Shown piece after piece: positions 6,843 to 9,944 of a stretch of 64,000 nucleotides of DNA. The stretch lies in the NCBI RefSeq assembly GCF_055900595.2, contig NZ_CM148325.1; one strand, written 5' to 3'. The stretch's first letter is position 1. Each line of letters begins with the position of its first letter. The position numbers and the translations under genes are program-made. The notes under the pieces were generated by a model. The model made no database searches. It was not told the DNA's origin and worked only from the letters and a program-made list of their open reading frames with translations.

Positions 6843-6914
6843 CTTACCATCTCGTTTTACATGCTTAACGTTAACACCGACTTAAGCGTGACATTCGCTA
6901 TTATCGGCGCAATT

Positions 6915-6932
6915 TGTTTTATATGCTAAACA
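6915..6932 (-). promoter_or_regulatory. NadR-box-like palindrome upstream of nadA
   Basis: TGTTTTatatgcTAAACA inverted repeat (TGTTTA/TAAACA half-sites) about 75 bp upstream of the nadA start. Confidence 0.35.
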
Positions 6933-7084
6933 AGATAGTCGAATGGTGAGGAAAAGTCACTCGAATTACGTATGAGATGACGAATGCCACACTTTGCGTC
7001 TTATTCCTCCGACGTAGAGTCGTTTACGCAGCAAGCGCGGAGTATGTCATCAGGGTCAGAATTGAAATTGAGAGATGCCTGAAT

Positions 7085-7440
7085 AGCAAAAAAGCGCCTT
7101 TAGGGCGCTTTTTTTACATTGGTGGGTCGTGCAGGATGACTCGCTTCGCTCGCCCTTCGGGCCGTCGCCGCGAGCGGCTCCGTTGTTTCGCTACGCTCAA
7201 CTCGAACCTGCTGCAGGTTCGAATCTTTGAATATCCCAGATAGCAAAAAAGCGCCTTTAGGGCGCTTTTTTACATTGGTGGGTCGTGCAGGATGACTCGC
7301 TTCGCTCGCCCTTCGGGCCGTCGCCGCGAGCGGCTCCGTTGTTTCGCTACGCTCAACTCGAACCTGCTGCAGGTTCGAATCTTTGAATATCCCAGATAGC
7401 AAAAAAGCGCCTTTAGGGCGCTTTTTTTACATTGGTGGGT
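7085..7440. repeat. tandem repeat, about 157 bp unit, a little over two copies, downstream of lysQ
   Basis: The unit starts (agcaaaaaagcgcc...) at 7085, 7242 and 7398. Each unit holds an A-run/GC-hairpin/T-run (agcgcc-ttta-gggcgct) and a 17 nt copy of the tRNA-Lys 3' end (tggtgggtcgtgcagga). Confidence 0.7.
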
Positions 7441-7508
7441 CGTGCAGGATTCGAACCTGCGACCAATTGATTAAAAGTCAACTGCTCTACCAACTGAGCT
7501 AACGACCC
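7433..7508 (-). tRNA. lysQ: tRNA-Lys (UUU)
   Basis: Reverse complement matches the E. coli tRNA-Lys sequence through the CCA end; seventh gene of the operon. Confidence 0.95.
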
Positions 7509-7640
7509 CTTGCGGGATTATGCTGCTTTAATCATTCAGGATGGTGGGTCGTGCAGGATGACTCGACTTCGTCTCGCCCTTCGGGCCGTTGCTGACGCAA
7601 CGTTATCCTTCACGTTCTCTACCAGTAACCACCTTTAAAT

Positions 7641-7716: not shown

Positions 7717-7862
7717 ATACGGGTGTTACCTGAATGATTTCTACTCGGAACCAATCTTTAAGATTAGTGGGTCGTGCAGGATGACTCGCTTCGCTCGCCC
7801 TACGGGCCGTTGCTGACGCATCGTTATCCTTCACGCTTAACATCTGAGTTTGATGTTAAAAC

Positions 7863-7938
7863 TGGTGGGTCGTGCAGGATTCGAACCTGCGACCAATTGA
7901 TTAAAAGTCAACTGCTCTACCAACTGAGCTAACGACCC
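7863..7938 (-). tRNA. lysY: tRNA-Lys (UUU)
   Basis: Identical tRNA-Lys sequence on the minus strand. Confidence 0.95.
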
Positions 7939-7941
7939 GAG

Positions 7942-8017
7942 TGGTGGGTGATGACGGGATCGAACCGCCGACCCCCTCCTTGTAAGGGAGGTGCTCTCCC
8001 AGCTGAGCTAATCACCC
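7942..8017 (-). tRNA. valZ: tRNA-Val (UAC)
   Basis: Reverse complement matches E. coli tRNA-Val(UAC) with CCA end. Confidence 0.95.
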
Positions 8018-8068
8018 GATACTGCGCTGGATACTACAAACTACTTCCACCGAACCCACCGTAATTAG

Positions 8069-8144
8069 TGGTGGGTCGTGCAGGATTCGAACCTGCGACC
8101 AATTGATTAAAAGTCAACTGCTCTACCAACTGAGCTAACGACCC
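8069..8144 (-). tRNA. lysW: tRNA-Lys (UUU)
   Basis: Identical tRNA-Lys sequence on the minus strand. Confidence 0.95.
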
Positions 8145-8146
8145 GG

Positions 8147-8222
8147 TGGTGGGTGATGACGGGATCGAACCGCCGACCCCCTCCTTGTAAGGGAGGTGCT
8201 CTCCCAGCTGAGCTAATCACCC
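8147..8222 (-). tRNA. valT: tRNA-Val (UAC)
   Basis: Identical tRNA-Val sequence on the minus strand. Confidence 0.95.
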
Positions 8223-8357
8223 GATACTGCGCTGGATACTACAACTAACTAGGTTAGTGGTGGGTCGTGCAGGATGACTCGACTTCGTCTCGCCCTTCGG
8301 GCCGTTGCTGACGCAACGTTATCCTTCACGTTTTACTACCGCTTCCACCTTAGCGAT

Positions 8358-8597: not shown

Positions 8598-9389
8598 TTA
8601 CATCGCGTTCAGACGTTTTTGTGCCTGTTTAGCGCCATCAGTACCAGGGTATTTACTGATAACCTGCTGGTATACGGCTTTCGCTTTTGCGGTGTCACCT
8701 TTGTCCTGCATGATGACGCCGACTTTAAACATCGCATCTGCAGCCTTCGGTGACTTCGGATAGTTTTTCACTACCGAAGCAAAATAATACGCCGCATCAT
8801 CTTTTTTACCCTTGTTGTAGTTTAACTGACCCAGCCAATAATTGGCGTTTGGCAGGTAAGTTGAATCAGGGTAATTTTTGATGAAATTCTGAAATGCCAC
8901 CATTGCGTCATCCTGGCGGGATTTATCCTGCACCAGCGCAATAGCTGCATTGTAATCCGTGTTTGCATCACCGCTTTTCACCGGCGCGCCAGCATTCGCA
9001 GTACCAGCATCAGCTGTCGGCGTCGTTGATGCCGCCGCACCGCTATGATCGCCGCTGGTTGATTGCGCCGCTGCACCACCGCTGCTGAGGCTATCGATCT
9101 GCAACAGGATCTGCTTTTGCCGCTCCACGACCTGATTCAGTTGATACTGATTTTCCTGAATCTGACCACGCAGGGAATCAATATCGGATTGATTATCAGA
9201 GAGTTGTTGCTGGAGTTGGGTTAAAAGCTGGCTGTGAGCATTAGAAATACGCTCAAGTTGAGTGACGCGGTCTTCGACCGAGCCTGAGCCGACACTACTG
9301 ATTGGTGCCTGAGCAAAAGCGGCCCAGGGGGCCGCTATACCAACCAGTAACGACAGACTCAATAGTTGATGTCTGAAGTTACTGCTCAT
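8598..9389 (-). CDS. cpoB: cell division coordinator CpoB (YbgF), TPR protein
   Basis: 263 aa ORF with signal peptide, coiled-coil Q-rich segment and TPR-like C-terminus; downstream of pal. Confidence 0.9.
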   Translation of the reverse strand: MSSNFRHQLLSLSLLVGIAAPWAAFAQAPISSVGSGSVEDRVTQLERISNAHSQLLTQLQQQLSDNQSDIDSLRGQIQENQYQLNQVVERQKQILLQIDSLSSGGAAAQSTSGDHSGAAASTTPTADAGTANAGAPVKSGDANTDYNAAIALVQDKSRQDDAMVAFQNFIKNYPDSTYLPNANYWLGQLNYNKGKKDDAAYYFASVVKNYPKSPKAADAMFKVGVIMQDKGDTAKAKAVYQQVISKYPGTDGAKQAQKRLNAM

Positions 9390-9398
9390 GCAATTCTC

Positions 9399-9944
<546 letters not shown>

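Follow-up and report, generated by a model that had tools for sequence, protein, structure and literature searches.

Two tandem tRNA-linked repeats with intervening terminators form a length-polymorphic array behind the lysT operon of Escherichia coli

The tRNA-linked repeats (TLRs) were first seen by Egan and Landy in 1978 at the tyrT locus, and a catalogue compiled by Rudd in 1999 lists 22 copies at ten loci of strain K-12 with one to five copies per locus (both as described in PMC8144298). These elements are without known function, a claim made for rtT in 1991 having been withdrawn in 1994 (PMC8144298). At tyrT, which is the source of the rtT RNA (rttR) and of tpr, a 178-bp repeat is present in 3.14 copies (Egan and Landy, 1978). 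Three other TLRs are located between the dual terminators T1 and T2 of rrnA, rrnB, and rrnD (Stenum et al., 2021, PMC8144298). For the lysT tRNA cluster of K-12, Agrawal, Mohanty, and Kushner (2014, PMC4176162) detected one transcript of over 1100 nt, a size that by itself fits termination at either the first or the second hairpin behind lysQ (T1 or T2 below). The passages of that study dealing with these operons describe identical terminators behind lysV and lysQ, full-length valU and lysT transcripts that end at a T1-type terminator, and removal of this terminator by RNase P through a cut between U and G located 3 nt after the CCA, with the precise 3′-end mapping performed on the valU operon and the cut being presumed for lysT/lysQ.

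The array described here is present in a 64,000-nucleotide stretch of DNA (the window) from contig NZ_CM148325.1. On the minus strand, ARAGORN detected seven tRNA genes (Lys-Val-Lys-Val-Lys-Lys-Lys) that extend from 8433 to 7433. These genes make up the lysT tRNA operon, which is flanked by cpoB and nadA in agreement with the matching RefSeq record. Transcription of the operon runs from right to left in window coordinates, and nadA is transcribed from the same strand. The final gene of the operon, lysQ (tRNA-Lys; 7433..7508, minus strand), was detected by ARAGORN and matched the Rfam tRNA model with 79.2 bits. A spacer of 590 bp separates lysQ from nadA, and the repeat array lies inside this spacer, downstream of the former gene and upstream of the latter. 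The last 18 nt of lysQ (7433-7450), which are the genuine tRNA end, constitute the first copy of the repeated 3′-end block. Beyond the array, the unique part of the intergenic region (6843..7082, minus strand) was defined from a promoter scan, which detected a promoter-like site within it at 6929-6900, and from the annotation of the matching RefSeq genome; this part is followed by the nadA start codon at 6842-6840.

Tandem Repeats Finder reported a repeat at 7083-7450 with a period of 156, 2.4 copies, 99% matches, and a score of 729, and a repeat search of the window found that 7110-7265 and 7266-7421 were 100% identical. A perfect duplication of 156 bp is beyond chance, and the array is not an assembly artefact, as the structure was found in several independent complete assemblies. 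A 32-nt block started at 7083, 7240, and 7396, giving spacings of 157 and 156. The sole difference between copies was in a T run of the plus strand, with 7 T in copies 1 and 3 and 6 T in copy 2; on the transcribed (minus) strand this difference falls within an A run located 5′ of a hairpin, the U tract being U6 in all three copies. The initial annotation of this DNA had described a tandem duplication of approximately 157 bp located 3′ of lysQ, with units starting at 7085, 7242, and 7398 and differing by a single T. This description was reproduced here, the starts being in the same register with a shift of 2 nt and no difference other than that in the T run being found.

The module consists of a 54-bp block, comprising the last 18 nt of tRNA-Lys, AATG, and an intrinsic terminator, that alternates with a 102-bp body. 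The order on the transcribed strand is lysQ, AAUG-terminator, body, 18 nt-AAUG-terminator, body, 18 nt-AAUG-terminator, and then unique DNA. The tRNA-Lys 3′ fragment, ATCCTGCACGACCCACCA, equals lysQ 7433-7450 and was found at the end of unit 1 (7276..7293, minus strand) and again at the end of unit 2 (7120..7137, minus strand). Copies of the tRNA-Lys 3′ end had also been reported in the initial annotation; their presence was upheld, but their length is 18 nt rather than the 17 nt given there. The body of unit 1 (7294..7395, minus strand) was delimited by a match to RF00391 at 7276-7401, by folding, and by alignment and covariation. This body contains a 12-bp hairpin at 7358-7382, derived from an inverted copy of the T-arm 5′ half, with the T-arm 5′ half itself, GCAGGTTCGA, at 7358-7367, followed by a conserved structured core of 64 nt at 7294-7357. 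The body of unit 2 (7138..7239, minus strand; RF00391 match at 7120-7245 with 51 bits) is 100% identical to that of unit 1, with its core at 7138-7201 and its T-arm half at 7202-7211. A 21-nt palindrome, TCGAACCTGC-N-GCAGGTTCGA, is present at 7358-7378 in unit 1 and at 7202-7222 in unit 2, and the T-arm-like motif ggttcgaatc previously noticed in each unit is part of it. Two open reading frames in this region, 6977..7243 and 7100..7402, had been dismissed as artefacts of the repeats; neither had a protein-family match or a CDS in RefSeq, in keeping with that judgement, and open reading frame calls in the array region are to be ignored.

Comparison with Rfam matched both units to the RtT family (RF00391), with 51.0 bits against a gathering score of 45, a narrow margin, and with E = 3e-08 over the full model (1-130). 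The same model also matched three inter-tRNA spacers of the lysT operon with 49.6 to 60.7 bits. These spacer-type TLRs, all on the minus strand, are located between lysZ and lysQ (7542..7635; 60.7 bits, repeat family, and alignment), between lysY and lysZ (7765..7841; 49.6 bits and repeat families), and between lysT and valT (8258..8351; 60.6 bits and repeat family). The spacer-type TLR at 7542..7635 is without a terminator and terminates in a tRNA-Lys 3′ fragment. The RefSeq records NZ_CM128605.1, sharing 99.9% identity with the window, and NZ_CP098223.1 each carry two "RtT sRNA" annotations, which coincide in position with the two units. Both units in the window are located 3′ of lysQ and before nadA, on the minus strand and in the same orientation, and each carries the hallmark of TLRs, an 18- to 19-bp segment identical to the 3′ end of the upstream tRNA (PMC8144298), in the form of the 18 nt given above. 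Judged by these features of its sequence, the array is two tandem TLR (RtT) units at the 3′ end of the lysT operon. The units share with the family the common core AACG-hairpin-CAACGGCCCGAAGGGCGAG...GAGTNATCC, the position relative to the operon, the orientation, and the 18-nt tRNA end. One element of the Rfam consensus, the outer helix, in which a 5′ segment pairs with the T-stem/acceptor 3′ strand, was not formed by the E. coli Lys units, in which cmscan reported non-canonical pairs throughout this helix; the minimum free energy fold of a Lys unit contained just a 4-bp UGGG/CCCA closure. The outer helix is a trait of the tyrT-based Rfam model and not of the definition of a TLR. The element belongs to a family recognized since 1978 and catalogued in 1999, and both copies are labelled by the NCBI pipeline. 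This catalogued identity of the unit (RF00391, TLR) was absent from the initial annotation.

Three symmetric elements consisting of an A run, a hairpin, and a T run are present at 7088-7114, 7245-7271, and 7401-7427. The first to be transcribed, terminator T1 (7396..7432, minus strand), has the form AAUG, A7-GCGCC-CUAAA-GGCGC-U6 and is located directly after the CCA of lysQ. T1 folded with -15.3 kcal/mol and z = -4.57, and its assignment also draws on the repeat family, the K-12 sequence, and the account of this terminator in PMC4176162. Terminator T2 (7240..7275, minus strand; AAUG, A6-hairpin-U6) is a repeat copy whose hairpin sequence is identical to those of the folded T1 and T3. Terminator T3 (7083..7119, minus strand; AAUG, A7-hairpin-U6) belongs to the last copy of the 54-bp block, beyond which unique sequence extends from 7082 towards the nadA promoter; it folded with -15.3 kcal/mol and z = -4.25 relative to shuffled sequences. 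A G+C-rich hairpin directly preceding U6 on the transcribed strand, as expected of an intrinsic terminator, was thus found by folding in T1 and T3. The repeat search, these folds, and the identical hairpin of T2 bear out the earlier proposal of three terminator hairpins in series before nadA. The three hairpins were absent from the list produced by a consensus terminator scan, although they were clear on folding; this was probably due to pairing of the flanking A and U runs, which consumes the U tract. T1 shares its hairpin and U tract with the terminator that follows lysV and lysQ in K-12 and differs from it in the A run, which is A7 in the window and A6 in K-12. In the relevant passages of PMC4176162, the identical sequence behind lysV is demonstrated to terminate transcription in vivo in K-12, and the same is presumed for lysQ. 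These K-12 data put the transcript end upstream of the TLR units, and termination would by analogy be expected at T1 of the window. The CCA-AAU/G context cut by RNase P recurs behind each TLR in the window. The passages of the K-12 study on these operons describe one terminator, with neither a TLR nor a second hairpin, whereas the window strain has three hairpins.

The order of elements in the window array is the same as that in the T1-T2 regions of rrnA, rrnB, and rrnD, which contain the TLR sRNAs rrA, rrB, and rrF. A TLR-like core, AACGTTGCGAAGCAACGGCCCGGAGGGTGGCG, is visible by eye in the T1-T2 spacer of rrnB, and rrB falls below the RtT gathering score while the window units lie above it. 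Binding of Hfq and CsrA has been shown for the rrn copies of the TLR only. In rrnB, T1 and T2 differ in sequence and only the 18-nt block is repeated, whereas in the window the terminator is inside the 54-bp repeat; the window array is expandable because the terminator belongs to this repeat. Units at tyrT and the Lys units are alike in being arranged in tandem after the last tRNA gene, in closing with the 3′ end of the cognate tRNA, and in an aligned common core at the same T-loop position, the tyrT arrangement being AAGGTTCGA, core, ATCCTTCCCCCACCACCA. The two loci differ in period (156 bp for the Lys units and 178 bp for tyrT) and in RtT score (51 bits for the window units and 133 to 137 bits for the tyrT copies). 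There is no intrinsic terminator between the copies at tyrT, where the units are co-transcribed with tyrT-tyrV. Each Lys unit, in contrast, begins with a strong terminator and would, hence, lie outside the main transcript. Relative to the TLR set of K-12, the window strain has one distal unit more and is without the TLR of the lysW-valZ spacer, which is 51 nt long as compared to 149 nt in K-12.

Copy number at lysQ was determined in 60 records taken at even spacing from the 5,428 matching E. coli records, with the span classes verified on fetched loci; the resulting frequencies are rough. Two units were present in 2 records, one unit in 25, and none in 31, the other two being a tRNA-TLR fusion allele and a partial record. 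In K-12 MG1655, a spacer of 432 bp, as compared to 590 bp in the window, holds one unit and two terminators. A body-only query detected the TLR body in 3,242 of 5,426 genomes at 1 to 5 places per genome, 5 being the most bodies found in one genome for both loci together; this count pools the lysQ and lysV loci, as a terminator-unit-terminator arrangement is also present behind lysV at the end of the valU operon. Counts of alleles based on at least 80% coverage of junction or three-unit queries were unusable, since overlapping BLAST pieces were joined and one-unit genomes reached 100%. There was no single-piece match to a three-unit array among the best 60 matches to a synthetic three-unit query. 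Units within a genome differed by 0 to 1 nt, while the window type differed from the K-12 type by 3 to 5 nt. GN05505, a second two-unit genome, has a duplicated unit of the K-12 type. Two-unit alleles at lysQ were also detected in other operon haplotypes, and tandem pairs were found at lysV as well. Alleles distributed in this way are as expected if the 54-bp blocks repeatedly undergo unequal exchange or evolve in concert, and the high identity of units within a genome could reflect gene conversion instead of independent duplications. The existence of 0-, 1-, and 2-unit alleles and the smaller differences within than between genomes support the repeated unequal recombination proposed in the initial annotation. 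That annotation had also held that a copy number invariant across E. coli and already annotated would make the structure ordinary. Copy number was not invariant and the two-unit form was in the minority, but the element was already annotated and of a known kind. At this length-polymorphic site, the presence of two units is an ordinary allele carried by a minority of genomes.

The fusion allele was found in strain 98232, where the annotation gives the last "tRNA-Lys" a length of 140 nt. Its sequence consists of the 5′ part of lysQ through GCAGGTTCGA, followed by the 64-nt core and then by ATCCTGCACGACCCACCA. The allele is the product of an exchange between GCAGGTTCGA of lysQ and the identical 10-mer of the TLR body. 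The fusion allele thereby indicates that the TLR body is composed of the T-arm 5′ half, a 64-nt insert after T-loop position 58, and the remaining 18 nt of the tRNA.

The Lys-type TLR junction was present throughout the Enterobacterales, with a pattern scan of species-representative genomes detecting at least 120 loci. In Enterobacter cloacae, a terminator-unit-terminator-unit-terminator arrangement with the same terminator between the units was found behind the valU-type operon, and tandem pairs were also present in Pectobacterium, Dickeya, and Erwinia. Among 45 distinct Lys-type cores, a three-hairpin structure had 92.5% of cells paired, as compared to 23 to 40% when the structure was slid along the alignment. 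Compensatory changes on both sides were observed for 8 of 13 core pairs, and none of 500 shuffles reached the covariation score. RNAalifold gave a partly implausible long-range structure on the MAFFT alignment, and hence the three-hairpin structure was specified manually for scoring; the third core hairpin was outside the scoring, the MAFFT alignment being inconsistent in this part. Units in Photorhabdus were complete tRNA-Lys copies with a T loop interrupted by the 64-nt core. These units formed arrays of 10 or more with a spacing of 174 to 179 bp and RtT scores of 72 to 86 bits. In many of the Photorhabdus copies, the acceptor stem was perfect and the UUU anticodon loop intact, and the predicted fold of a unit retained the acceptor, D, and T stems. 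Comparison of these sequences suggests that the TLRs of E. coli are decayed copies of T-loop-interrupted tRNA genes.

These observations can be combined into a single account, comprising tandem TLRs, exchange between blocks, back-up terminators, and descent from tRNA-Lys, which we consider very likely as a whole. The anatomy of the array and the population pattern suggest that 156-bp units are gained and lost by unequal homologous exchange or replication slippage between the 54-bp blocks and whole units, processes that would yield the 0-, 1-, and 2-unit alleles. Most operon transcripts would end at the first hairpin, T1, after which RNase P would trim the terminator 3 nt past the CCA as in K-12. 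With termination at T1, the TLR bodies would be transcribed only by read-through; both this read-through and what becomes of the TLR bodies are envisaged here by analogy to K-12 and rrnB. Any read-through RNA would meet the module of 3′ end plus terminator again, T2 and T3 thus acting as redundant terminators before nadA. The extra unit would then contribute one further back-up terminator to the interval separating nadA from this very strongly transcribed tRNA operon, together with one more copy of the TLR. Selective neutrality is most likely for the duplication itself. As the conservation and covariation seen in the core argue against TLRs being mere junk, neutrality may be limited to the extra copy. 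As judged from the other genera, the body would represent a decayed copy of tRNA-Lys with a structured 64-nt core, conserved across the Enterobacterales, interrupting the T loop after A58.

Maintenance of the core structure with compensatory changes across about 25 genera would also accord with the units being working sRNA genes, the expression of which is set by leaky read-through of T1 and the dosage of which is raised by the duplication. The layout resembles that of rrnB, where a stable-RNA gene is followed by T1, a TLR, an 18-nt 3′-end copy, and T2, and expression by leaky-T1 read-through has been shown for rrA, rrB, and rrF, the TLRs within the terminator pairs of rrnA, rrnB, and rrnD (PMC8144298). 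RtT RNAs have, moreover, been detected and found to be differentially expressed in Klebsiella by RNA-seq (PMC4147364). However, T1 of the window is a strong hairpin followed by U6, and the units are absent from lysQ in about half of the sampled E. coli genomes. The 19 TLRs of tRNA operons score <0.01 in a prediction of CsrA binding (PMC8144298), and TLRs have no known function, the claim made for rtT having been withdrawn as outlined above. Dosage-dependent sRNA genes are, on balance, an unlikely explanation of the array. Each unit contains a sense-strand open reading frame (7200..7114 and 7356..7270) with a TTG start that would specify a 28-aa peptide, MSVAKQRSRSRRRPEGRAKRVILHDPPM; this frame has RRxRPEGR in common with the Tpr of K-12, MRSFDQGSTRAPARERCRRQRPEGRSAQR, the "protamine-like protein" annotated within the tyrT repeats, and the units could accordingly encode a small arginine-rich peptide like Tpr. 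The resemblance to Tpr is, however, accounted for by nucleotide conservation, as CGNCCCGAAGGGCG of the core is translated in one and the same frame at both loci. The open reading frame of the units begins with TTG, lies behind a terminator, had no match in Pfam or NCBIfam, and has no CDS annotated in RefSeq, while the 1- to 4-nt indels in loops and the compensatory changes in stems across genera are the pattern of a structured nucleic acid and not of a coding frame. A Tpr-like protein with a conserved translatable frame was rejected as a candidate on these grounds, and a peptide-coding role for the units is barely credible.

Another potential origin of the array is repeated integration, with the 18-nt copies being attachment-site scars of an integrative element or of a small mobile insertion targeting the T loop. 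The 18-nt fragment begins exactly in the T loop, after A58, and many att cores of tyrosine integrases begin at this point. The core was, furthermore, constant in length, with 64 nt in 60 of 88 cases, and the T-loop position that it occupies is shared by the Lys and Tyr TLRs. Against these similarities, the 590-bp intergenic region is too small for an integrase or other gene. A search of 50,697 phage records produced 0 matches, and matches in a plasmid collection were nearly all to very large, non-mobilizable entries (0.28 to 5.4 Mb, with one of 50 kb), which look like chromosomal sequence filed as plasmids. Copy-number variants differed by exactly one 156-bp unit with 54-bp direct repeats at the edges, all loci among the matches listed in the cross-species scan (at least 120) were in the Enterobacterales, and all but one of the units at 10 loci checked for tRNA genes were located just 3′ of a tRNA-Lys gene. 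Duplication of an att site with an integrase or cargo was also rejected as a candidate, there being only 102 bp between the repeats, with no CDS, no protein-family match, and no phage match in this interval. Integration is, therefore, a highly improbable source of the array, and gain and loss of TLR units by exchange between the 54-bp blocks remains the preferred explanation.

The array itself offers little that is new. These results do indicate how such arrays can vary, as a 54-bp block comprising a tRNA end and a terminator enables them to expand and contract. They also identify the lysQ-nadA spacer as length polymorphic, with alleles of 0, 1, and 2 units and fusion alleles, a property that can confuse short-read assembly and tRNA annotation; the "140-nt tRNA-Lys" of one genome is an example of the latter. 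The one lead of wider interest lies outside the window, in Photorhabdus. Our literature search, which did not extend to Rudd (1999), found nothing relevant on RtT in Photorhabdus or on T-loop insertions. A possible but rather doubtful extension of the descent from tRNA-Lys is that the E. coli units descend, in decayed form, from a separate class of tRNA-like genes, namely complete tRNA-Lys copies with a 64-nt three-hairpin domain at T-loop position 58/59. Nucleotides of the T loop bulge out at 58/59, and the L-shaped fold might, hence, tolerate an insertion at this site. If expressed, the Photorhabdus copies would be a new kind of T-loop-expanded tRNA-like RNA, with potential roles as a processed precursor or as a decoy for factors that target tRNA-Lys. 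The Photorhabdus arrays may be the best place to ask what TLRs are for and, if their RNAs are expressed and have such roles, would provide a biological rationale for a family of repeats that has so far been functionless.

The lysT operon (seven tRNA genes, minus strand, with lysQ last) is throughout a mosaic of presence and absence of the tRNA-linked repeat (TLR; Rfam RtT, RF00391). In the window, the lysW-valZ spacer (8018-8068) was 51 nt long; its K-12 counterpart (L001 920-1068) contained a TLR and measured 149 nt. The spacers between the last tRNA-Lys genes were 33 nt long in many genomes versus the TLR spacers of 132 and 146 nt in the window. The number of tRNA-Lys genes was lower in some of the compared genomes. 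A direct repeat of 205 bp (window 7863-8244; 1.9 copies, 99% identical) was also detected and corresponds to the Lys-Val pair of genes that occurs twice, as lysW-valT and as lysY-valZ. Elsewhere in the window, the Rfam model of the CpoB/ybgF intercistronic RNA thermometer (RF02782) was matched over its full length (142 bits) upstream of cpoB, at 9360-9498 on the minus strand.

The terminator-TLR-terminator module was also found 3′ of lysV, the last gene of the valU-valX-valY-lysV operon adjoining gltX/xapR (K-12, L004 2389-2720). The K-12 lysV and lysQ units differed by 1 nt, and the lysV-locus module was duplicated in one E. coli genome (L140). Sequence exchange appears to have occurred between the lysV and lysQ loci.

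A TLR core (AACGTTGCGAAGCAACGGCCCGGAGGGTGGCG) was recognised by eye between the T1 and T2 terminators of K-12 rrnB (L017 158-340), in a terminator cassette that is in wide use. The last 18 nt of the 5S rRNA were repeated in this region, which scored below the Rfam RtT threshold.

The central core hairpin of the E. coli/Enterobacter type exhibited apparent tandem G-A/A-G mismatches (CG-GA-GCCG...CGGC-GA-CG), with mismatch-bearing hairpins at window positions 7310-7330 and 7154-7174 on the minus strand (columns 30-49 of A2, the cross-genus core alignment). At these mismatch positions the cores of other genera in A2 had Watson-Crick pairs. The mismatches may form a sheared G-A motif.

Arrays of at least 10 units, of 174-179 bp each, were observed in Photorhabdus asymbiotica (L065 8700-10500) and likewise at L018, L064 and L132. 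The Photorhabdus arrays lay 3′ of two intact tRNA-Lys genes. Each unit contained all of tRNA-Lys, with the 64-nt structured core of the TLR inserted behind position 58 of the T loop; in many units the acceptor stem was perfect and the UUU anticodon loop intact. The units scored 72-86 bits with Rfam RtT, and their 5′ parts were also called as tRNA by Rfam. In L065 and L018 the ARAGORN calls were limited to the two intact tRNA-Lys genes, but in L064 they also included two 73-nt tRNA-Lys genes within the array.

A 140-nt 'tRNA-Lys' was present in the RefSeq annotation of E. coli strain 98232 (NZ_CP173446.1; positions 821-960 of L011). This gene was a lysQ-TLR fusion, consisting of the tRNA 5′ part, the 64-nt core within the T loop and the 18-nt 3′ end, and is the product of an exchange between GCAGGTTCGA 10-mers. 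Functional lysQ has effectively been lost from this genome.
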